In this document: positions 7,184 through 44,890 of the stretch, one piece after another
Numbering within the stretch: position 1 is the stretch's first letter
How the letters are laid out: each line of letters opens with the position of its first letter
Assembly (NCBI GenBank): GCA_038869735.1
Contig: JAWCQO010000004.1
Location: 12,455 to 76,454, forward strand
Origin: Candidatus Anstonellales archaeon
Lineage (GTDB): Archaea > Micrarchaeota > Micrarchaeia > Anstonellales > CG1-02-47-40
Direction of reading: 5' to 3'
Length of the DNA stretch: 64,000 nt
Translations under genes and position numbers: made by a program
The notes under the pieces: model-generated
What the model saw: the letters and a program-made list of their open reading frames with translations, nothing else
The model's database searches: none
What the model was told of the DNA's origin: nothing

Positions 7184-7990
7184 ATGCTTGAACTTTTCTC
7201 TTATACATTTATGCAATATGCGCTTGTAGTTGGGGTCATAATAACCGTCATCTGTTCTACGCTAGGGCTTTTTCTTGTTTTGAGAAGAATGTCTCTCATA
7301 GGAGACGGCCTTTCCCACATAGCGTTCGGTGGAATTGCTCTCGGTCTCTTTCTAAATTGGATGCCGTATATAATGGCTCTCCTCTTCTCCATCTTTGCCT
7401 CATTGGGTATAATAAAGCTGAGAGAAAACGCAAGAATTTACGGAGATACTGCTATAGGGATAGTTTTTTCCTCAGCCCTAGCGTTTGGGGTTGTTTTAAT
7501 CAGCATCTCAAGCGGCTTTAAAGCAGACTGGCACACATTGCTCTTTGGAAATATAATTTCAGTTAATCTCGAAGATGTGCTAATAACCCTTTTGATAGGC
7601 AGTTTGGTTTTAGTCCTCGTCATGCGTTATTATCACCAATTTCTTTTTCTTTCATTTGACGAGAAGTCTGCCCAAGCATCTGGAATAAACACACGTAGAC
7701 TTAATGTGCTCTTGATAGTACTAACAGCAATAACAGTTGTAATATCAATCCGCATAGTAGGCATTCTACTAGTTTCGTCATTTTTAATAATCCCTCCGGC
7801 GACAGCCTTGCAGGTCGCACCATCCTTCCGACGCGCCCTTATTTATTCTATCCTTTTTGGACTCATCTCCCTTTTCGTTGGGCTCCTAGCTTCTTATTAT
7901 TTTGACATAGCATCGGGTGGTGCAATAGTCCTCGTTTCATCCATTCTTTTCTTTGGCGCTTTCCTTTACAGGTTTTTTTACCTCTCCTGA
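7184..7990 (+). CDS. znuB: Metal ABC transporter permease (ABC-3 family)
   Basis: 268 aa with 8-9 TM helices. Follows the ATPase with a 2-nt gap, giving the typical znuACB-type arrangement. Confidence 0.8.
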   Translation: MLELFSYTFMQYALVVGVIITVICSTLGLFLVLRRMSLIGDGLSHIAFGGIALGLFLNWMPYIMALLFSIFASLGIIKLRENARIYGDTAIGIVFSSALAFGVVLISISSGFKADWHTLLFGNIISVNLEDVLITLLIGSLVLVLVMRYYHQFLFLSFDEKSAQASGINTRRLNVLLIVLTAITVVISIRIVGILLVSSFLIIPPATALQVAPSFRRALIYSILFGLISLFVGLLASYYFDIASGGAIVLVSSILFFGAFLYRFFYLS

Positions 7991-8224
7991 TATCCTAATA
8001 AAATAATATTACTATGTTACGTCGATTAAGTTTTTTTCTAATGACGCTTTACGCTTGGCATTGCTTACTCTCTTTCATTACTCTCTCCCATTTTTGGTTA
8101 TTAGAAATTATCTCCCTTTCTGTTGAGAGGGGCAAAAAACAAACTTTTTTAAAGTTAAAAAAGAAAATAATCCCACCAGCCACTTCTAAAGCTTTAAACT
8201 CCTATATAAAAAAGGTGCAGAATT

Positions 8225-10768
8225 ATGGAAGACCAAACGGAAGAAAAAGAAGAAAAGCCTTCCTTCTTTAGAAGCCCACTTGTTATTCTAATGGCTGGAA
8301 TAGTAATTTTAGCTTCCATAGCTTATTTTCTTTCAACATTCCTACCCGATTTTTTTGGTTTAGCACAAACAAAACTTGAAGCACCAACACTCCTTAGAGC
8401 TGAGCCTATCTCTGGAGGTATAAAACTTTCCTGGAATGCAGCACCGGCTGTTCCCGACAAATACGTAATCTATAGAAGCACAACTCGTGGAGTTTTGGGC
8501 ACCAGAATTGGAGAAGTTCCATCAAGACTTACTTCATATATAGACCTCCAGGTTTCGCCCGGTAACACCTACTATTATGTAGTAAGATCCTCCCTTGCAA
8601 ACGGAAAAGAAGATGAAAACCTAAATCAGGCTTTTGCAACTTATTCCGGAACAGGTATGTTAGCAGCTCCTTCTTCACTTTCAATCTTAATAAATGGAGG
8701 AAAAACTCACACAAACTCATCTACTGTTATGCTATCCTTATCTGCTGTAAATGCAGATAAGTGCAGGTTCAAAAATGAAAAATCTGATTGGTCCAGCTGG
8801 GAGCAATTTTCATCCACCAAGCAATGGACGCTCTCTCCAGGTGACGGAGCAAAGCAGGTCTCTTTTCAGTGCATGAATCCCTTTGGTGCAGAATCCAAAG
8901 ACGTTTCTGCATACATTACGCTTGATACAGTTCCTCCAGCAATCAAAATATACAAATCAGAAAAAATTCAACGAACAAGAAAATTCAACTTAACCTTTTC
9001 TGTTAAAGACGACACTTCTACGAATCTTGTGTGTAAGGGTTATATAAATGGCTGGGAAACCGACATAAGAACCAAGCCAGAAGCAAATAATACTGTTATT
9101 TTTACGGCCCTCACACCCAAAAATTTAGTCTATGTAAGGTGTTATGATGAAGCAGAAAATTCAGTAGAAAGCCCAATCTCCATATTTGAGGTTGATCCCT
9201 CCCTCTTACAGAATGGGACCAGAATAAAGATAAATGAGGACATGCCTCAAACCAGAAGTATCGCAGTTGAGCTATCGTTATTCTCGCAGGATGCGTATGA
9301 GTGTAGACTGAAGAACTCAGGAGAAACTTTCATTGATTGGGAGCCATACAAGACAAAAAGAAGCTGGACTCTAACATACGGAAATGGAATAAAGGTTGTT
9401 TATTACCAATGCAGAGATATTTTCGGTCAATTGGTTGGCGAAGCACAGGACGACATAATACTATTAAGATCAAATGATGGCCCACGCGGCGGGGGTAGTA
9501 GAAGTGAAGAAGGAGGAGAGGTAGGAGGTACAAGAAGCTCAGGTAATTATACTATTACTATTCCCAATCCCTCTGACCGCCTTCTTTTATTCCTGATAAA
9601 TAATGGGGCCATTTACACCAACTCCAAAGAGGTTATTTTGAATCTTTATCCGAATCCAGTTAGGTATGCCTCTCTTCCACTTTACTGTAGATTCAAAAAC
9701 AACCACACAAACTCAGAATTCTCCTCGTGGTTACCATATACTTCTTCAATTAGATGGAATCTTGATTGGTCAGCCAACCGGAGCATTTTCCCCCAACAAC
9801 CACTTAATAATTACACGGTCCTATACGAGTGCGTCTGGGAATCCAACATAACTGAAAATGGCCAGGACTCAATAATCTATGACCCAAGCGTTCCACAACG
9901 ACCTACTAATCTTTCGGCTACATCTCTTCCTGGAGGCGATATATACCTTTCATGGAGTGGTAGTATACCCTCTTATTCCTTAAGTGGCGAGACACCTTCA
10001 CCAATCATAAAATACAACATTTACAGAAGAGAGTACTTCTCCTCTCGTCAGCCTTCTCCTCTCTTTAATCCCCCCATTTCAAATGCAATAACAAATATTG
10101 AGCAACTTATTAGAGGTTCAATTTTTGCTTTTGAAGAGAAAAAAACTGACGAGTACTTACCTCTTGGATTATTTTTCAAGATTGGTGAATCAAGTTCATT
10201 AGATTGGCTAGATTCAACCAAGTCAATGCAAAACCCTCCACTCAACGGACTTAAGTATGAGTATGTTGTAAAAGCAGAAAACCAAGCAGGAACCGAATCA
10301 GATGAAAGCAACATAGTAACTGCAATCTCAGATTCAACAGCACCAACCATTACTGTTTATTCACCTCAAAATGGTTATATCTATCAACCAGAAAGAGAAA
10401 ATATCGAGTTGCGTTTTAGAGCAACTGAGACGTCTTCACCACCAATATCGTGTGCATACACTCTATTGTCTCCTCCAATAAGAACTAAACCACCATGGCC
10501 GATGCTGAAAACCTATTCGCTGCCTCCTCTTCAATCAGGTAATGAATACCGCGAGTCTCTCAAAGAGAAATTGGAACTTCCTAAGCCCCTGAATTCTACT
10601 ATTACATATTATCTCTCATTAGAATGCAAAGACAGCATAGGTAATAAAATTAAAGAGGAGATAACTTTTCATGTGACTCCTTCAGACCGTACAAGAACCA
10701 AGGACTCAGGCAATTTCCCAACCACTGAAAAACTAACTGGACAAGAACCTGAAAAGCTTGCTTCGTAG
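8225..10768 (+). CDS. Large N-terminally anchored cell-surface protein with a fibronectin-III-like domain and a triplicated Cys-containing module
   Basis: 847 aa. N-terminal TM helix VILMAGIVILASIAYFLSTF. FN3-like segment (IKLSWNAAP...YVIYRS...GNTYYYVV). Three copies of a roughly 45-aa module, CRFKNEKSDWSSWEQF...WTL...QC / CRLKNSGETFIDWEPY...WTL...QC / CRFKNNHTNSEFSSWLPY...WNL...EC. Ribosome-binding site GGTG at 8213-8216. Confidence 0.6.
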   Translation: MEDQTEEKEEKPSFFRSPLVILMAGIVILASIAYFLSTFLPDFFGLAQTKLEAPTLLRAEPISGGIKLSWNAAPAVPDKYVIYRSTTRGVLGTRIGEVPSRLTSYIDLQVSPGNTYYYVVRSSLANGKEDENLNQAFATYSGTGMLAAPSSLSILINGGKTHTNSSTVMLSLSAVNADKCRFKNEKSDWSSWEQFSSTKQWTLSPGDGAKQVSFQCMNPFGAESKDVSAYITLDTVPPAIKIYKSEKIQRTRKFNLTFSVKDDTSTNLVCKGYINGWETDIRTKPEANNTVIFTALTPKNLVYVRCYDEAENSVESPISIFEVDPSLLQNGTRIKINEDMPQTRSIAVELSLFSQDAYECRLKNSGETFIDWEPYKTKRSWTLTYGNGIKVVYYQCRDIFGQLVGEAQDDIILLRSNDGPRGGGSRSEEGGEVGGTRSSGNYTITIPNPSDRLLLFLINNGAIYTNSKEVILNLYPNPVRYASLPLYCRFKNNHTNSEFSSWLPYTSSIRWNLDWSANRSIFPQQPLNNYTVLYECVWESNITENGQDSIIYDPSVPQRPTNLSATSLPGGDIYLSWSGSIPSYSLSGETPSPIIKYNIYRREYFSSRQPSPLFNPPISNAITNIEQLIRGSIFAFEEKKTDEYLPLGLFFKIGESSSLDWLDSTKSMQNPPLNGLKYEYVVKAENQAGTESDESNIVTAISDSTAPTITVYSPQNGYIYQPERENIELRFRATETSSPPISCAYTLLSPPIRTKPPWPMLKTYSLPPLQSGNEYRESLKEKLELPKPLNSTITYYLSLECKDSIGNKIKEEITFHVTPSDRTRTKDSGNFPTTEKLTGQEPEKLAS

Positions 10769-11769: not shown

Positions 11770-12906
11770 TTGTTTTTCAAAGGCAACATTAAAGAAACAT
11801 TTTTAAATCTTTTAGTAGCATATGATGTTGGCGATCCAGTTATGGATAGTTTGATAAAATCGGTAATTGGTGAGCGAGAGCCCGCTCAAAACGAAGTATT
11901 CGGCTCTGACCAAATTAAAATTGTGACTGTAGGAGTTGGCGGTGCAGGAAATAACACGATAAACCGCCTTATACGTGCAGGCGTAAAAGGAACAGAACTC
12001 GTTGCTGTAAATACAGATCGACAGCACCTCAATCAAATACACGAAAAAGCACACAAAGTCCTTATTGGAAAAAGCATTACTAAGGGTTTGGGTGCAGGCG
12101 GATATCCAGAAACAGGTGCAAAAGCCGCAGAAGTTGATAGGGCACTTTTGGAGAAGGAACTTGAAGGTGCGCACTTAGTTTTCCTCTGCGCAGGAATGGG
12201 TGGCGGGACAGGAACAGGAGCAGCTCCGGTGATAGCTCAGATTGCAAAGGAACAGGGCGCAATCACCGTTGCAATGGTTACCTACCCATTTAACCTTGAA
12301 AGAGCACGAAAGCTTAAAGCTGACGAAGGAATTGCAAATCTAAGAAAAAACGTAGACTCTGTAATCATTCTTGACAATAATAGATTGGTAAAGCTAGTTC
12401 CCAATCTTCCAATGAACGAAGCTTTCTCAGTTGCAGATGAAATTCTTGCGAAAGCAATTGGAGGACTCGTATGGACAATTACGCAGCCTTCATTAATAAA
12501 CATAGATTTTGCAGATGTGCGTGCAATTGTTCAGGGAGGAGGAGTTGGATTTATTGCAGTTGGAGAAGGCAAAGGGACCGATAAGGTCAGAGGGGCTGCT
12601 GAGGGTGTGCTTCGCAATAAGCTGTTGGATGTAGATTACGAAGGCGCAAACGGAGCACTCATCCACATATCTGGAGGAGCAGACCTTACGCTTGGTGATG
12701 CGATAAAGGCAGGAGAGATAATAACAGAAAAGATGGACACGCAAGCCAACATAAAATGGGGAGCACGTTTGATACCTGGCTATGACGGAAAGTTAGAAAT
12801 AGTAGCTATAGTAACAGGAGTCAAGGGCGCCTCGGTGCTGGGCATGTCCTTTGAAGATGTCTCAGCAAAAAAGGTTACTTACGACGATATAGAAATAATC
12901 GGGTGA
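11770..12906 (+). CDS. ftsZ: Cell division GTPase FtsZ (paralog 1)
   Basis: Tubulin/FtsZ motifs [13 protein letters not shown] and [13 protein letters not shown] (T4 loop), plus NTD. Start may instead be the Met at 11842. An AT box TATAAAAA lies at 11749-11756. Confidence 0.9.
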
Positions 12907-12907
12907 G

Positions 12908-13978
12908 GTGACTATAATGCTTGAAGGATTTTTGCATTCTGCCCTTGAACACAACAACCCTCCAAACGAAGATGCAGTAGGAGACAATGACATAAGGATA
13001 GCAGTTGTAGGAGTCGGTGGTGGCGGTTGCAATACCATTCATCGCCTTATGCAATCAAACCTTAAAAGTGCAACCACAATTGCAGTTAACACAGATCATC
13101 TCCATCTACGAAGTATATCGGCTCACAAGAGAATCTTAATAGGCCAATCGATAACAAAGGGTCTTGGTGCTGGGGGTTTTCCAGAGGTAGGACAAAAGTG
13201 TGCAGAGATATCAAAAGACAAGCTTTCTGAAGTGCTATCCGAAAATGACCTTGTTTTCCTCTGCGCAGGAATGGGTGGCGGGACAGGAACAGGAGCAGCT
13301 CCTGTAGTAGCACAAGTTGCAAAGGAACAGGGCGCAATAGTAGTTGCTATTGTTACATACCCCTTCAATCTGGAGCGTATAAGAATACAAAAAGCCCAAT
13401 GGGGACTTTCCCATTTGACGAAGGTATGCGATACCGTTGTGGTAATTGACAATAACCGGCTAGTCCAATATGCACCAAATATTCCGATAAATGATGCATT
13501 TAATTTAGCAGATAACATTACTGGAAGAGCAGTTAAGGGAATCTGTGACACAATAATGTTTCCGTCTCTCATGAATATTGACTATGCAGACGTAAAATCA
13601 GTAATGGAGGAAGGCGGAGTTTCACTTATCTCTGTTGGCGAAGGAAAGGGACCGGATAGAGTTGAGAAAGTTGTAAAGAGTACTCTTGAACACCCTCTTC
13701 TTGATGTTGACTACGAAGGAGCAAGGGGAGCTCTTTTACATATCGGAGGCGGTTCCAGCCTAACACTCGGAGAAGCAATAGAGATTGGCGAAAAGCTAAC
13801 TGAAGCATTTGACAAAAATGCAAATGTCAAAATGGGAGCAAGACTGACTCCAGAATACGGGGAGGATGTTTCCGTGACGGCTATAGTCACAGGCCTAAAA
13901 CAGACTCCTTCAATATTCAGTCAGCAAACAACAGACGCCGACGAGGTAAAGGGATTAGAAGAGCTATCTCTCCTATAG
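12908..13978 (+). CDS. ftsZ: Cell division GTPase FtsZ (paralog 2)
   Basis: GVGGGGCNTIHRL and [13 protein letters not shown]. Follows paralog 1 by 1 nt. Likely ATG start at 12917, preceded by GGTGA at 12905-12911. Confidence 0.9.
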   Translation: MTIMLEGFLHSALEHNNPPNEDAVGDNDIRIAVVGVGGGGCNTIHRLMQSNLKSATTIAVNTDHLHLRSISAHKRILIGQSITKGLGAGGFPEVGQKCAEISKDKLSEVLSENDLVFLCAGMGGGTGTGAAPVVAQVAKEQGAIVVAIVTYPFNLERIRIQKAQWGLSHLTKVCDTVVVIDNNRLVQYAPNIPINDAFNLADNITGRAVKGICDTIMFPSLMNIDYADVKSVMEEGGVSLISVGEGKGPDRVEKVVKSTLEHPLLDVDYEGARGALLHIGGGSSLTLGEAIEIGEKLTEAFDKNANVKMGARLTPEYGEDVSVTAIVTGLKQTPSIFSQQTTDADEVKGLEELSLL

Positions 13979-14037
13979 GTTCTAGAATATGGTCCGTAAC
14001 TGGATTCCATAACTGGATCGATCATCTGACTCCCCTT

Positions 14038-14075
14038 CCTTTTTCTTTTCCTTTTTTTGTTGGTTTTTATCTTTA
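14038..14075 (+). terminator. T-rich tract downstream of ftsZ2 (putative archaeal oligo-T terminator)
   Basis: cctttttcttttcctttttttgttggttttt lies immediately after the stop codon. Confidence 0.3.
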
Positions 14076-14207
14076 AACAGAACCTATCTCAAAAAGAAGA
14101 AAAGATTTTTCGACTTCATCAAGAAATTCACAGTACTTGAACTTAGAGTATAACGCACTTTACAGTTAATGCACTTTTTACCTTTATCCTTTGAAATATA
14201 ATTAGTG

Positions 14208-14279
14208 TGGACGGAGAGGGATTTGAACCCTCGGCCTCTTCGTTGCGAACGAAGCGATCTACCTCTGATCTACCCGCCC
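14208..14279 (-). tRNA. tRNA-Ala (anticodon CGC)
   Basis: Folded by hand on the minus strand. Acceptor stem GGGCGGG/UCCGUCC with the G3:U70 Ala identity pair. D arm GAUC/GAUC. Anticodon loop UUCGCAA. T arm GAGGG-UUCAAAU-CCCUC. Discriminator A. No encoded CCA. Confidence 0.8.
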
Positions 14280-14334: not shown

Positions 14335-14979
14335 ATGAAATCAGCAGTTCTTTTTTCTGGCGGTAAGGATTCAACTATGGCAGCTTTTTTCTCATTGTTT
14401 CAAGGATGGAATACAACTCTAATTTGCGTCCAATCAGAAGAGGATTCTTATATGTTTCATCATCCAAATACCGACTTTTGTAAATTACAAGCGCACTCAA
14501 TGGGCTTGCCTATACACTATATACGAACAAACAAGGCGCGCGAGTTGGCTGACCTTAAAGCTCATCTTGAAAAGATCAAAACAGATTGCATAGTATCTGG
14601 AGCTGTGGCTTCAGAATATCAAAAACAACGCATAGACGTTATAGCTGAAGAACTAAACATCCCTTCTTTTTCTCCGTTATGGCACAAGGGAACCCAAATT
14701 CTGGAGGAAATTGCCCAATATCTTGAAATCTACATCGTTCACGTAGCTGCCGATGGTTTAGGAAGTGAGCTGCTTGGAAAAAGGCTGACCCTTACCGAAA
14801 TATATAATCTTTCAAAACTAAACATCCATCCTTTTTTTGAAGGTGGAGAAGGAGAAACTTTTGTTTCAGATGCTCCGTTTTTTAGAGAACGATTGGAAGT
14901 ACTAGCGTGGGATTACCTTTGTGGTTCAACTCATTTCACCGCTAAGATATCAAAGATACGTGTTCATAAAAAATTCTAA
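14335..14979 (+). CDS. PP-loop ATP pyrophosphatase, diphthine-ammonia ligase (Dph6/MJ0570)-like
   Basis: N-terminal SGGKDS PP-loop at residues 8-13 and a 214-aa length typical of the archaeal DUF71/Dph6 N-domain. Confidence 0.6.
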   Translation: MKSAVLFSGGKDSTMAAFFSLFQGWNTTLICVQSEEDSYMFHHPNTDFCKLQAHSMGLPIHYIRTNKARELADLKAHLEKIKTDCIVSGAVASEYQKQRIDVIAEELNIPSFSPLWHKGTQILEEIAQYLEIYIVHVAADGLGSELLGKRLTLTEIYNLSKLNIHPFFEGGEGETFVSDAPFFRERLEVLAWDYLCGSTHFTAKISKIRVHKKF

Positions 14980-16683: not shown

Positions 16684-17760
16684 TTATATCATCCTCAATA
16701 TAGTTGATAAATCCATTTCCTCTCCAAGAAGCATCGTAAAGTCCCGGATAAAAGGAATAAAAACAGCAAAATTTATTGCTGGAAGAAATACACTTGCAAT
16801 AAATATATAAAAAGCAAGGGACACTATATAAAATAGCTTTATTGATATACTTCCGCTATAGCGGTTTATATTTATGCCTTGATAACCATCTCTACTCAAG
16901 TTTTCTGCTTCCCCATAATTCCCTTGCGCAATTCTCCCTCCCTCTACTTCTTCCCATATCCCCCTGTATTCCTGACTGGTTTGAGGCTCATCTAATCTTT
17001 CAAATATCCCTGTCTGACTTCCGCGGATTATAAAGTCATTTATCACCAACATTGCAGGATAAATAAGAAAGACTCCAAATGAAAAAGCAATAAGTGAGCC
17101 CCCAAAAAGTCTAGTTGGCTCAAATGCGCGGAGCAAGACCCCGATTGGAAACAGATACGTAAGCGTAGCTATAGAGAGATACTCCAAAATCTTTATTTGC
17201 ATAATGACAAATAATAGAGAGGTAGCTATTCCTTGAGCTACAATCGAGAATATTTGAATTAATATGTTTAGACCAGCCGCCGGTCTTAGAGAAAAGCCCA
17301 TCCCCAAAGGGATGGCATTATGATGAACCCCCGCCATAGTTTGAAAAACCCAATACACAGCACCAACATATACTAAGGCTTGCAGATTCTTTTTTCTTAT
17401 GTATCCCAAGTAATCATATGTGAGGTCATAGAAATTCATATTTTGAAATCGAGCGTCATTGTATCTTTCTCCAAAGATTAACCCCATCTTAGACGGCTTT
17501 AATTCGCACATCAGACCGACTGTTCCAACAGCAACAACAGCAATTGCAGCTGTCACTAAAAGTTGAACGAGCTCTGCCCTACTCCAAACCTCAAGTTGCT
17601 GATTTCTAAAGAATTTTGATGCCATAAATATTAGCGAGAGAATCCCGCTAGATATTAAGACTGCAAGTGCAACGTTGACTCTCCAATCCTGCCAGAAAAA
17701 AGAATAAGTTGAAGCTATCTGCCCGCCTGTCATGCATACATTAAATACAAAATCCGCCAT
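16684..17760 (-). CDS. Polytopic membrane protein, paralog 2 of six
   Basis: 358 aa. Core motif FPIGVLLRAFEPTRLFGGSLIAFSFGVFLIYP. C-terminal tail ...LSTILRMI. Abuts paralog 1 with no gap. Confidence 0.6.
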   Translation of the reverse strand: MADFVFNVCMTGGQIASTYSFFWQDWRVNVALAVLISSGILSLIFMASKFFRNQQLEVWSRAELVQLLVTAAIAVVAVGTVGLMCELKPSKMGLIFGERYNDARFQNMNFYDLTYDYLGYIRKKNLQALVYVGAVYWVFQTMAGVHHNAIPLGMGFSLRPAAGLNILIQIFSIVAQGIATSLLFVIMQIKILEYLSIATLTYLFPIGVLLRAFEPTRLFGGSLIAFSFGVFLIYPAMLVINDFIIRGSQTGIFERLDEPQTSQEYRGIWEEVEGGRIAQGNYGEAENLSRDGYQGININRYSGSISIKLFYIVSLAFYIFIASVFLPAINFAVFIPFIRDFTMLLGEEMDLSTILRMI

Positions 17761-33269: not shown

Positions 33270-33368
33270 GCAGGGGTAGCAAAGCCTGGTCAAATGCGCA
33301 GGACTCAGAAAGAATCTTGGGATATCCTGTCGGTTAGCCGTTCGAGAGTTCAAATCTCTCCCCCTGCA
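33270..33368 (+). tRNA. tRNA-Leu (anticodon CAG) with a 14-nt intron in the anticodon loop
   Basis: Folded by hand. Acceptor GCAGGGG/CCCCUGC with discriminator A. Anticodon stem CAGGA/UCCUG. Loop CUCAGA|A interrupted by roughly 14 nt (about 33310-33323) at the canonical 37/38 position. Long variable arm UCGGUUAGCCGUUC. T arm GAGAG-UUCAAAU-CUCUC. Confidence 0.7.
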
Positions 33369-34013
33369 CTTAACCCTCGCCTAGTTCACTTTATCGCAGG
33401 GGAACGCGCAAATCCATACCTCAAGATGAACAGGACAAAATTGACTGCGCGCTCAAGCACTTCGCCGCGTTGGGCGACCTTGACTACCGCGTGGTTGATT
33501 CGTATGAAAACTTTAAGCAAACACTTCCGAGCTGACTTAATGGTTGATATCTAATGCAAAACGATTTATTCGGATATTGCAAAGAAATCTGTGCCTCCTT
33601 CTTGGTGCTAGTTTTTGTCCTTATCATCGCGTCCGCTTTGTTGAATGAAGCCAGCAAGCTAGCGCCAAATAACGCGGCAATTCAATCGTTGAAAGGAACT
33701 TACGAGTTTCTGGCGCGGCTGTTTATTGATTGGGGTTCTCCAGATCCAGCCCTTTGGATTGTCCGAATCCTTGTCGGAATCGTTGCGGCTTTCCGGATAT
33801 ACGCAAATTTTCAACGAAATAGCTGATAAGTTCCGCGGAAACGCCGTCTGTCCTTCGCTTTATAATCTCAGGCACTCAACGAGCTCGCCCTCGTCGCTAC
33901 GCCGTTTTCGGAACAGAGTTTATTAATGCCAAATGCGACACGATAGTGCGTGAAAGGGCATTTACGAGAGAGTTCTGCTCAGAGATGTGGACTTGCCTTG
34001 CTCCCCCTGCACT
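33369..34013. mobile_element. Putative remnant of a tRNA-Leu-integrated element: GC-rich insert of roughly 650 bp bounded by a 13-bp direct repeat of the tRNA 3' end
   Basis: CTCCCCCTGCACT occurs at 33358-33370 (tRNA T-stem/acceptor 3' end) and again at 34001-34013. The intervening DNA is clearly more GC-rich than the background, e.g. gcgcgctcaagcacttcgccgcgttgggcgacc. It encodes only small ORFs and no integrase. Confidence 0.35.
33554..33826 (+). CDS. Small hypothetical membrane protein inside the GC-rich insert
   Basis: 90 aa with one clear TM helix (ASFLVLVFVLIIASALL). Compositionally different from host genes. May be a decayed element gene. Confidence 0.25.
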   Translation: MQNDLFGYCKEICASFLVLVFVLIIASALLNEASKLAPNNAAIQSLKGTYEFLARLFIDWGSPDPALWIVRILVGIVAAFRIYANFQRNS

Positions 34014-34182: not shown

Positions 34183-35379
34183 ATGCGCAGGTACATGCTA
34201 ATGATACCCAACATATACGAAGGTAACTATAAGCGACTTGTGATTTTCCCTCTGATTTTAATATTAACATCCATTTTTTTTATACCGCAAATAAAACAAG
34301 GTGTGGACTTTAAGGGCGGAGTCTTAATCACCCTCCATACTTCTGCTCCAGTAAATATAAGTATAGCTGAATCCACTCTCCAAAGCGAGCTTAAAACAGC
34401 GGTAAGCATCAAGCAGATAGAGACAGCTATAGGCAACTCGATTGAAATAAGCTTCCCTCTTGATGAAAATATATCAAGAGCAGAAAAAATAAAGGAAGAA
34501 TTCTTTTCACTTGTTGACGACGCTTCGCGGCTTGAAGCTGATGCATCTGTTCTAGAGTCAGACCCAAACTCAACATCTACCGGAATTTCGCCCGATGCAA
34601 AAGAAAAGTATACAGAAGCTCGCGAAAGACTTAACTTGTATGCAGATGAACTATTTCTGTTAGCAGGACTTAATAAACAAGCTGCCAAAGCCAATAGCAC
34701 CAACGAGCTCCGCAGAATGGTTAGCGATGCGTATAACTCTATCAATAGTGATTATCAAACAAAAATAAGAAGCACAATAGAAAAACACATCCCTTACTCG
34801 TCAATATCCTTTGAGCTAGTCTCCTCAACGCTTTCAGAGAGATTCCTCTCCTCAGCATTATGGGTTATTCTGGTCTCATCGGCGCTTTCAATAGCAGTTG
34901 TTTTTTTTGTTTTTCGCACATTTATACCTAGTATTGCCGTACTGATTGGAGCGGCATCAGATATAATCATAGCATTGGGCGCAATGGGTCTTTTTGGAAT
35001 ACCACTTACTCTCGCTTCATTTGCAGCTCTACTTATGTTAATAGGTTTTTCCCTTGACACCGACATCCTTCTTACGATGCGCACCCTCAAGAGGTCGGAG
35101 GGAAGAGCCCGCGATAGAGCTTTTGAATCAATGAAAACGGGTTCAACTATGAGTATGGCAGCAATTACTGCGTTTGCATCCCTTCTCATCCTCTCACTCG
35201 CAACAAACATATCTACATATTACGAAATATCCTCAGTTGCTCTTGCCGGTCTTTTTGGTGATTTGTTTGCTACATGGGGACTTAACGCCGTTATCATTCT
35301 TTGGTATGCGGAAAAGAAAGAAAAGGAAGCAGAGGCAATAAAAACCCACTTCGCTTCTCTTTATGAAAGGAAGGAATAA
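34183..35379 (+). CDS. secF: Protein-export membrane protein SecF
   Basis: SecD/F fold: TM1, periplasmic domain, and the conserved C-terminal 5-TM bundle (LIGAASDIIIALGAMGLFGIPLTLASFAALLMLIGFSLDTDILL). Lies immediately upstream of the larger paralog, as in archaeal secF-secD pairs. Confidence 0.7.
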   Translation: MRRYMLMIPNIYEGNYKRLVIFPLILILTSIFFIPQIKQGVDFKGGVLITLHTSAPVNISIAESTLQSELKTAVSIKQIETAIGNSIEISFPLDENISRAEKIKEEFFSLVDDASRLEADASVLESDPNSTSTGISPDAKEKYTEARERLNLYADELFLLAGLNKQAAKANSTNELRRMVSDAYNSINSDYQTKIRSTIEKHIPYSSISFELVSSTLSERFLSSALWVILVSSALSIAVVFFVFRTFIPSIAVLIGAASDIIIALGAMGLFGIPLTLASFAALLMLIGFSLDTDILLTMRTLKRSEGRARDRAFESMKTGSTMSMAAITAFASLLILSLATNISTYYEISSVALAGLFGDLFATWGLNAVIILWYAEKKEKEAEAIKTHFASLYERKE

Positions 35380-43960: not shown

Positions 43961-44890
43961 ATGATTACCACCAACGATGAAGTGACCGTGCAACAATTCA
44001 AAGACAAAGTAGCTAACCTAATTTTTTCTGGAAAGAACATTGATTTAGATGCTTTATCCATATCCAACATCCAAAGATATTTAAGAAAAACAACCACCAG
44101 ATTTCGAATTGTTAGTGCACACCTCAGACGACTTGAGGGTAGACATACCCCCTATGGTAGAAGAAAGAGGTCAGAACTTGCTTTAGAGTTAAAAGCCTTA
44201 GATGAGTTGCGCTCTCTTTTTGTTTCAAAACTACAATTAAAGAGAGAGCTATCAAAAAAACCACCTCTTTTGGATGAAACGCCAGAGCAACAAGTACATG
44301 CAAAAAAACCGAAAACCAAACCCAAATTATCAGCCAACTTTAAAAACGGAGAAAGCGTGAGCTTTGCTTCTAGTCAACGCAACGAAAGTACAGGCGGCAA
44401 TAAAACACAGAGTATCGCAAGTAAAGATAAAGAAAATACAGCTCTTTCGCCCATCGTAAAAAAAAATCGATTAAACGCCTACAAAAAGATTAAACGCCTA
44501 CAAAAAGAGCTTTTTGAAGTACGGAGAGCAATATCCTCATTGGGAGAATCTAATTCTAACCAAAATTCACCTATTCTTCACGATCTGTTAGCAAGAGAAA
44601 AAATATTGGAAATCCTAATAACTGAGATAATATTCAATTCTCAATTGAAAGGGGGAACTATAAACTCAACATTAACTATTGAAGATAAAAGAAGACGAAT
44701 TATTCAACTTGAAACGAATTTGAATATCGCAAAAAAGAGGATAGCGGAGCTAACAGATAAAGATAATCTTAACCCCGATGATCAGTATCTGTTATCATTC
44801 TTCAAACGTGAGGTCCAAAGAATAGAAAAATTACTATCATATACCTGGTCATTAAAACCTGTTGATAATCAATATCTAAAACAATATTAG
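43961..44890 (+). CDS. Hypothetical Lys-rich coiled-coil protein
   Basis: 309 aa, strongly basic, heptad-like segments. Contains a tandem 19-bp repeat at 44470-44507. Confidence 0.45.
   Translation: MITTNDEVTVQQFKDKVANLIFSGKNIDLDALSISNIQRYLRKTTTRFRIVSAHLRRLEGRHTPYGRRKRSELALELKALDELRSLFVSKLQLKRELSKKPPLLDETPEQQVHAKKPKTKPKLSANFKNGESVSFASSQRNESTGGNKTQSIASKDKENTALSPIVKKNRLNAYKKIKRLQKELFEVRRAISSLGESNSNQNSPILHDLLAREKILEILITEIIFNSQLKGGTINSTLTIEDKRRRIIQLETNLNIAKKRIAELTDKDNLNPDDQYLLSFFKREVQRIEKLLSYTWSLKPVDNQYLKQY

Follow-up and report, generated by a model that had tools for sequence, protein, structure and literature searches.

We report on a 630-bp insert that separates a tRNA-Leu gene from secF in a Candidatus Micrarchaeota chromosome. 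The window, by which we mean the whole 64-kb stretch of DNA that was analysed (from contig JAWCQO010000004.1), is placed in this lineage by its SecF, whose nearest genomes are Micrarchaeota metagenome-assembled genomes (MAGs; best 63% identity). We conclude, at a probability of roughly 70%, that the insert is an internally deleted and likely immobile remnant of a small (~5-6 kb) Micrarchaeota integrative element that targets tRNA-Leu 3′ ends by means of a ~400-aa tyrosine integrase with a zinc ribbon. We read it as a fossil because the two core repeats, the right arm and an intact gene encoding a 90-aa protein persist, whereas the integrase is gone, along with most of the left arm and 95% of a restriction gene (res). 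DPANN archaea have tiny genomes, and to our knowledge few mobile elements have been characterised in them.

The insert is bounded by two exact copies of the 13-mer CTCCCCCTGCACT, the attL core at 33358-33370 and the attR core at 34001-34013, both on the forward strand, as are the tRNA gene and all features of the insert. The window holds no third copy, even with one mismatch allowed, and the number of chance matches expected from shuffled sequence is 0.02. The first copy completes a tRNA gene at 33270-33368 (Rfam RF00005, 47.2 bits, a full-length match with 16 inserted nt after CUCAG). This gene, the apparent integration target, whose 3′ end would have been regenerated by the core of the element, encodes a tRNA-Leu with anticodon CAG and has a short intron in the anticodon loop, because of which ARAGORN does not call it. 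In the repeat, 3 nt from the end of the T-stem are followed by the 7 nt of the acceptor 3′ strand, the discriminator A and two nt of trailer, and identity between the two copies ends sharply at 13 nt on both sides. A first-pass annotation of this DNA had recognised the repeat and assigned it to the T-stem, acceptor strand and discriminator; both points hold, with the trailer nucleotides added. The second copy, the displaced original end of the tRNA gene, is followed by host flank and then by secF at 34183, with SecF/SecD genes downstream of attR. A partial or split tRNA gene, or another known RNA, was also looked for at this copy as the source of the repeat and rejected, since Rfam has no match there at permissive thresholds and the bases before the core are unable to form a T-arm.

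The insert stands out in composition as well, much as the first-pass annotation had remarked. Its GC content of 47.5% compares with a mean of 38.8% for the window (sd 3.0 among 630-bp windows); no more than 0.24% of all 630-bp windows reach that value, and every one of them overlaps the insert. The observed/expected ratio of CpG is 1.38 in the insert and 0.78 in the window, and past the second repeat the base composition is back to host values. The higher GC and CpG mark recently foreign DNA. By itself a 13-bp repeat is weak evidence; five unrelated 13-mer direct-repeat pairs no more than 2 kb apart are present in the window, plus the repeats of two longer duplicated regions. What makes this repeat significant is that it coincides with the 3′ end of a tRNA and with a boundary in composition, and most of all that homologous architecture exists elsewhere.

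Such architecture is seen in L141, a 5158-bp metagenomic contig found through a homologue of the 90-aa protein (here and below, L with a number designates a locus used for comparison). Positions 33652-34009 of the window align with positions 4773-5137 of L141 at 77% identity over 365 bp, taking in the 3′ part of the 90-aa gene and the whole right arm. L141 is made up, in order, of the core CTCCCCCTGCA, an inverted copy of the right-arm module described below (E 4e-6), an integrase gene, three small genes, a nuclease gene, a gene for an 86-aa homologue of the 90-aa protein, the right arm with its module (E 1e-9), and CTCCCCCTG. The integrase is a 401-aa protein with a PF00589 domain and a zinc ribbon, and the nuclease is a 558-aa, Shedu-like protein of the SduA/NucS type. 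The former is 53-55% identical to integrases encoded directly after tRNA-Leu in L017, L061, L137 and L140 (55% to L017). L140, from an NCBI Micrarchaeota MAG, holds a complete element of ~6 kb, with a tRNA-Leu end, an integrase, cargo, a hairpin and, ~6 kb downstream of the tRNA-Leu end, an 11-bp repeat of its own tRNA end. Thus, the attL/attR geometry that had been proposed from the window alone is supported both by the homologous right end with the same core in L141 and by the repeat of the tRNA-Leu end in L140.

These integrases belong to a family of ~400-aa proteins with a PF00589 domain and a C-terminal zinc ribbon, which has 4421 homologues at E <= 1e-20; all those with a source name come from Micrarchaeota lineages. 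In L017, L061 and L062, a phmmer search with XerD located a tyrosine integrase gene that follows the tRNA-Leu end immediately; a strict regular expression for tyrosine-recombinase motifs gave no match, and it was phmmer that detected the family instead. The integrases of L141 and L140 are unsplit, and PF00589 is the sole recombinase domain among the called genes of both. In agreement with the first-pass annotation, phmmer with XerD and three integrases of the family detects no integrase, either within the insert or in the rest of the window. We also considered that the integrase might be a fixed housekeeping XerA that happens to lie beside tRNA-Leu, or that the element might be XerA/dif-dependent, like the integrative mobile elements exploiting Xer (IMEX). 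Both were rejected: the integrase scores 105 bits against the NCBIfam model XerA_Arch, whose cutoff is 220, and its context varies between genomes. In L144 and L145 (9880-10000), two core copies in reverse orientation (TGCAGGGGGAA and TGCAGGGAGCA) lie upstream of the integrase, each followed by an inverted module; judging by this arrangement, the integrase can occupy the other end of the element, or else the att sites have been inverted.

A metagenome scan with the 3′ 21-mer of the tRNA returned 120 loci, several of which have the core again downstream of the tRNA. In L048 (three times), L060 (twice), L067 and L090, homology to window positions 33912-34000 extends over the ~90-100 bp that precede this further core (nhmmer E 1e-12 to 1e-18), and a profile of this module matches the right arm of the window at E 9e-17. 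The pattern derived from it, AGANNNNGNCTNNNNNYRCTCCCCCTGCA, matches solely the module sites of the window, L048, L060, L067, L090 and L141, and the core bounds homologous elements in these same five contigs. Altogether, module and core occur at nine further places, each of them 3′ of a tRNA-Leu gene or bounding an integrase element. The isoacceptors targeted are UAA in L048 and L060, CAA in L090 and CAG in the window; since the host tRNAs are different leucine isoacceptors, the insertions are independent.

The segments between cores in L048, L060, L067 and L090 measure 0.6-1.8 kb, encode no recombinase and carry genes in either orientation, namely a methyltransferase, two glycosyltransferases, a Fic protein and hypothetical proteins. 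L048 (1-3701) and L060 (reverse strand, 7308-10278) are tandem arrays of at least three integrase-less cassettes right after tRNA-Leu(UAA), each cassette ending in module and core. In L060, a one-base variant of the core forms a further junction that splits the second segment. The cassette that follows this junction contains a 167-aa open reading frame (ORF) and has 99% identity with what comes after the final core of L048, even though the neighbouring cassettes are not the same and the identity of the host flanks is 86-94%. As far as the tRNA end, L057 and L060 share collinear sequence (76.6% over 4.7 kb); L060 then has 3.0 kb of additional DNA, after which collinearity returns. Because collinearity breaks exactly for the 3.0 kb of cassettes after the tRNA end, L057 is the empty-site counterpart of L060, and insertion at a tRNA-Leu end is demonstrated, at the level of collinearity, for this relative. 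Among the left ends that follow the cores, two related groups can be told apart, and one of the two also occurs at the integrase-bearing loci. At the array junctions, inverted arms flank a 7-bp asymmetric centre (...CTAAGCGCA, then CTCCCCC, then TGCACTTAG...), giving an imperfect palindrome; tyrosine-recombinase core sites are normally laid out in this way, with inverted arms around an asymmetric spacer of 7 bp. Across the elements, the length of the core repeat varies from 9 to 13 bp.

Other tRNA-Leu loci show related arrangements. L049 (reverse strand, 784-1679) and L054 (2572-3912) are 100% identical through tRNA-Leu(UAG) and 10 nt more, and unrelated beyond, which we read as strain-level turnover at one site. 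Past the tRNA, L049 has a module-like inverted end, a 34-codon stub of an integrase N-terminus and a type I HsdM gene. L005 carries a ~6-kb integrase-less island after tRNA-Leu(CAG), with a type IIG restriction-modification gene and a 90-aa gene; its right arm is related and its core diverged. The attR of L005 was detected by alignment, where an exact k-mer search for direct repeats had failed. Two more archaeal contigs that share the tRNA-Leu 3′ end, L081 (reverse strand, 9165-10693) and L086 (reverse strand, 25-1503), have integrase-less inserts of ~1.5 kb with a diverged tRNA-end repeat and without the module. The two ORFs of the L081 insert (201 and 263 aa) looked like an AbiE-type toxin-antitoxin pair, and a 411-aa ORF in L086 looked like an ATPase.

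The content of the insert itself can be followed from left to right. Directly after attL, positions 33371-33397 form a degenerate left-arm remnant whose first ~25 nt bear a weak resemblance to the left ends of L141 and L049; with the module profile, an inverted copy is detected in L141 at the left end but none at that of the insert. Overlapping this remnant is a 53-codon open frame without a start codon (33374-33535, stop at 33533-33535), the residues 9-53 of which are homologous to Res. In an exhaustive phmmer search its best match is to residues 849-893 of an 894-aa protein with ResIII helicase and RE_endonuc domains (76% identity, E 5e-15). The frame also matches Pfam RE_endonuc directly (E 9e-5, profile positions 76-106 of 108) and the PADLOC model REase_III at positions 946-983 of 989; a PDB sequence search was without match. 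These matches identify it as a pseudogene made of the last 45 codons, or last 5%, of a type III restriction gene res. The full combination of a ResIII helicase with a C-terminal RE_endonuc domain in one protein of ~900 aa is absent from the window, where the last 45 residues alone are present. The fragment was also compared by tblastn with the tail of the NucS-type nuclease that lies upstream of the 90-aa gene in L141, L142 and L008; no similarity was found, and this origin was rejected in favour of Res.

Next comes an intact gene (33554-33826) for a 90-aa protein with two hydrophobic helices, which corresponds to the short ORF with a transmembrane helix that the first-pass annotation had pointed out. 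The protein has nine homologues with 53-70% identity, retains every residue that is invariant in this family and contains the conserved loop KLxPxNAAIQSLKGTYEFLxRLFIDWGSPDP. It matches no Pfam, PADLOC or NCBIfam family, and an exact-sequence look-up found no record. The gene is a conserved one in this family of elements. In L141 (2997-4950), L142 (81-2491) and L008 (27-1363), the homologue lies 4-20 nt downstream of a gene for a PD-(D/E)xK nuclease (NucS_C, with SduA/Shedu domains nearby), and in L005 it lies beside the type IIG restriction-modification gene. The pairing of nuclease and 90-aa membrane protein suggests an undescribed two-gene defence module.

The remaining ~175 bp (33827-34000) are a non-coding right arm, putatively the P-arm of the former attP, which can be aligned with L141, L142, L005 and L090. 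Its last ~90 bp (33912-34000) are the conserved module, which contains an AT-rich, TATA-like box and an AGA....G.CT motif that adjoins the core. The box, which resembles a transcription factor B recognition element (BRE) with a TATA box, reads GCAGAGCTTATAAAC (TTTATTAA in the window) at 33925-33945 and in the aligned columns of L141, L142 and L090; it lies ~90 nt before the core and faces outward, in the direction of attR and secF. Possible roles are those of an outward promoter or of an AT-rich site for the recombinase or for bending. Rfam at permissive thresholds finds no known RNA at the module, and a conserved RNA or single-strand structure of the module is not supported: for eight modules, RNAalifold predicts no more than 4 weak pairs (-0.6 kcal/mol), and single-strand folds are mostly no better than those of shuffled sequences.

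The favoured course of events would be as follows. Given the geometry and the known mechanism of tyrosine integrases, the integrase would have recombined the attP of the element, that is, the core CTCCCCCTGCA(CT) between the element arms, with the end of the tRNA gene. As the sequence shows, the core of the element now completes the tRNA, which still scores as a full tRNA, and the original end lies displaced at attR, 643 bp downstream. The sequence also shows in outline that the element bore defence cargo, here a type III restriction system, and the gene for the 90-aa membrane protein beside the right arm. In a later internal deletion, the integrase gene was probably lost together with most of the left arm and with res up to its last 45 codons, which left the order core, left-arm stub, res tail, intact 90-aa gene, right arm, core. 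Both integrase loss after integration and tandem integration are documented in archaeal elements (PMC8371274). As for the suggestion of a decayed virus or plasmid, the decay is borne out by the res tail, the lack of an integrase and the weak left arm; nothing shows an origin from a virus or plasmid, and the intact relatives are small islands with an integrase and defence cargo. BLAST of the insert against phage and plasmid collections gave no match, nor did scans of viral contigs with the 90-aa family and with the module pattern.

Several observations weigh against this account. The repeat is merely 13 bp long, and the left arm of the insert is barely recognisable. L141 begins 32 nt before its core, so that its left junction is not demonstrable as a tRNA. 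The relationship between integrase and att sites is inferred from co-occurrence; the L057/L060 comparison apart, no recombination product, whether circle or empty site, was observed for the family. The locus is also identical in all four assemblies that hold it, with the insert in every one; an exact look-up of the SecF protein found it in GCA_038869615.1 (contig JAWCQU010000001.1) and in Logan assemblies SRR27730035, SRR27730037 and SRR27730040. At an unoccupied site, the tRNA-Leu(CAG) would run straight into AACATCCTCTGC, with a predicted attB junction TTCAAATCTCTCCCCCTGCACTAACATCC (longer form TTCAAATCTCTCCCCCTGCACTAACATCCTCTGC), and an excised insert would give the circle junction GGACTTGCCTTGCTCCCCCTGCACTTAACCCTCG (longer form GTGGACTTGCCTTGCTCCCCCTGCACTTAACCCTCGCC). 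The predicted empty tRNA-Leu(CAG)-secF site is absent from the metagenome collection. There is no close genome with which to compare the site because the nearest relative, at 63% SecF identity, has no tRNA upstream of secF; an unoccupied tRNA-Leu site was obtained for L060, in the form of L057, and none at the locus of the window. One Logan contig of the same population, L004 (1-95, corresponding to window 33276 onwards), begins inside the tRNA-Leu, six bases past its 5′ end; the likely cause is a break in the assembly at sequence common to other tRNA-Leu genes, not a polymorphism.

The alternative that survives best, although we consider it unlikely, is that the insert is a functional non-autonomous cassette, comparable to a cis-mobilisable element (CIME) or a miniature inverted-repeat transposable element (MITE), which is excised from and re-inserted at tRNA-Leu ends by an integrase of the family whose gene lies in another part of the genome or on an element resident in the same cell. 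The perfect cores, the well-conserved right arm and the intact 90-aa gene are all compatible with mobility, and cassettes without an integrase but with the same module do occur at tRNA-Leu in L048, L060, L067 and L090, some in tandem. The near-identical cassette that L048 and L060 share in different arrays, between more diverged host flanks, and the abrupt divergence of L049 and L054 after the tRNA end speak for movement in these relatives. The window copy, however, opens with a truncated res pseudogene and has no recognisable left arm, whereas the mobile-looking cassettes elsewhere keep conserved left ends; it thus lacks the complete recombination sites, core plus both arms, that a CIME-like cassette possesses. 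Moreover, no integrase was detected in the 64 kb of the window, out of a contig of at least 547 kb, the four assemblies show no presence/absence polymorphism and the empty site is absent from the metagenomes. Recent mobility is apparent for the L048/L060 cassette and not for the window copy. Mobilisation of a miniature element in trans, which had been offered as the other possibility for the insert, therefore holds for relatives in other contigs and is less likely here.

A broader form of this idea, which we hold equally doubtful, is that Micrarchaeota maintain an integron- or CIME-like economy of cassettes, in which a trans-acting zinc-ribbon integrase captures integrase-less, single-gene cassettes at the 3′ ends of several tRNA-Leu isoacceptors, stacks them there and exchanges them. 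The cargo may be defence, glycosyltransferase, methyltransferase or Fic genes, each cassette ending in the ~100-bp module and a tRNA-Leu core, and the insert would be an array of one cassette that can still be mobilised. This proposal rests on the L048 and L060 arrays and not on the window. No integrase lies beside the tRNA of the window, and L057, the relative in which the L060 array locus is empty, has none either. An integron in the strict sense was rejected, as there is no attC-type hairpin and the integrase scores 48 bits where the integron-integrase cutoff is 265. An element of the partitioning type, like Sulfolobus spindle-shaped virus (SSV), was rejected too, for no frame of the insert resembles an integrase and the integrases of the relatives are unsplit.

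It is very improbable that a transposase-type enzyme such as a casposase placed the insert, with the repeat as a target-site duplication and the conserved ends as terminal inverted repeats. Methanosarcina casposons do enter tRNA-Leu genes with 14-bp duplications and form tandem arrays split by one shared duplication (PMC4779613), and both the imperfect palindrome around CTCCCCC and the inverted module at the left end of L141 have the look of inverted ends. Nevertheless, the tyrosine integrase is the only recombinase of L141 and L140, where no Cas1, PolB or transposase domain occurs among the called genes; the 7-bp asymmetric spacer fits a tyrosine-recombinase core site; and the variable repeat length is unlike the fixed length of such duplications. 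The inverted similarity of the ends is confined to the profile level in L141 and, by direct alignment, to one of eight cassettes (31 bp, in L048), and is not seen in the window. Finally, one might argue from the five other repeat pairs in the window that the 13-mer match is due to chance, with the GC-rich DNA being either a native intergenic stretch or a fragment of some unrelated gene, but this reading is effectively refuted by the module profile, the pattern AGANNNNGNCTNNNNNYRCTCCCCCTGCA and the L141 alignment, given also the chance expectation for this 13-mer, the outlying composition of the insert and the ~100-bp module that the second copy ends, as the same core does at the nine other places.

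A few further observations were made along the way. The window contains no second copy of the insert. Its positions 12178-12263 and 13253-13338 share two exact direct repeats (50 and 22 bp) at a distance of 1075 bp, within the adjacent ORFs 11770-12906 and 12908-13978, which look like tandem paralogous genes; this is the sole other region of the window with a GC content approaching that of the insert. At 44469-44508, the 21-bp stretch GATTAAACGCCTACAAAAAGA occurs in tandem with a period of 19 in AT-rich surroundings. The integrase-bearing element of L140 contains a reverse transcriptase gene (RVT_1) beside an Rfam RT-16 RNA (83.6 bits) at 12777-14228, a putative retron-like unit in a DPANN archaeon. 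The Micrarchaeota contig L137 has three fluoride riboswitch aptamers within 4 kb (13092-13164, 14864-14933 and 17066-17138), upstream of an enolase gene, a gene for a major facilitator superfamily (MFS) transporter and a gene for a 289-aa protein with a prenyltransferase domain.

For the window, the outcome is a mundane one, most likely a dead remnant that accounts for a GC anomaly and an orphan small gene. Beyond the window, the scar ties a Micrarchaeota chromosome to a family of very small elements that target tRNA-Leu and ferry genes for defence, among them restriction systems of types III and IIG, nucleases resembling Shedu, a reverse transcriptase of the retron type, and Fic. Such elements can be mined for by means of three sequence handles, namely core, right-arm module and integrase, and the 90-aa membrane protein that travels with nuclease genes may be a new component of a defence system. 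The scar itself is of an ordinary type, left by the well-known tRNA-targeted islands with their partial tRNA repeats. What appears undescribed is a Micrarchaeota family with this short core, right-arm module, zinc-ribbon integrase, very small size and defence cargo; a review of archaeal tyrosine recombinases (PMC8371274) makes no mention of DPANN, Micrarchaeota or zinc.

Among known systems, the family agrees in layout with the genomic islands that tyrosine integrases place in tRNA genes (Islander-type islands; in archaea, those with pNOB8-type non-partitioned integrases). For such islands, loss of the integrase and later decay are on record (PMC4383910, PMC8371274). In both, the element enters the tRNA 3′ end, the tRNA is regenerated, the displaced end remains as a direct repeat, and intact members have the integrase next to attL and carry defence cargo. 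The window shows the tRNA-end repeat with an intact tRNA, foreign composition and cargo in the form of the res pseudogene; an integrase inside the element is found in L141 and L140 and is absent from the insert, because of which we file the window copy as a remnant and not as an intact member. The differences from these islands lie in the very short core (9-13 bp), in the ~400-aa zinc-ribbon integrase that is widespread in Micrarchaeota and in the small size of the elements (0.6-6 kb).

CIMEs, which are related to the integrative and conjugative (ICE) as well as the integrative and mobilisable (IME) elements of Streptococcus, are integrase-less segments bounded by att sites, lie in tandem at one site and derive by deletion from integrase-bearing elements. 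Integrase-less, att-bounded segments in tandem with related elements, likewise deletion-derived, are seen here. CIMEs are, however, bacterial and dependent on conjugation, whereas the present case concerns a DPANN archaeon and a window copy minus one arm. Tycheposons of Prochlorococcus are small cargo elements of a streamlined genome, with tyrosine recombinases, integration at tRNA genes, partial tRNA repeats, stacking, and degenerate remnants that build variable islands (bioRxiv 10.1101/2020.12.28.424599). They differ in the domain of life and in the integrase family; moreover, no replication module is seen in the archaeal elements, and the cassettes can be single genes of ~0.7-1.2 kb. By analogy, tycheposons and CIMEs may both be regarded as functional counterparts of the Micrarchaeota elements.

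Methanosarcina casposons share the 3′ part of tRNA-Leu as a target, a short flanking duplication, tandem arrays with one shared repeat and solo ends as remnants (PMC4779613). They are set apart by Cas1 and PolB, neither of which is seen here, by the tyrosine integrase that the relatives encode instead, and by the CGCA...AT-rich 14-bp duplication of M. mazei, to which the core is unrelated. With integron cassettes, the L048 and L060 arrays have in common promoter-less or single-gene cassettes that lack a recombinase, sit at one site and end in a conserved module, with one cassette common to both arrays. Unlike integron cassettes, they have no conserved attC-like hairpin and carry genes in both orientations, and their presumptive integrase falls far below the integron models and is not consistently located next to the arrays.

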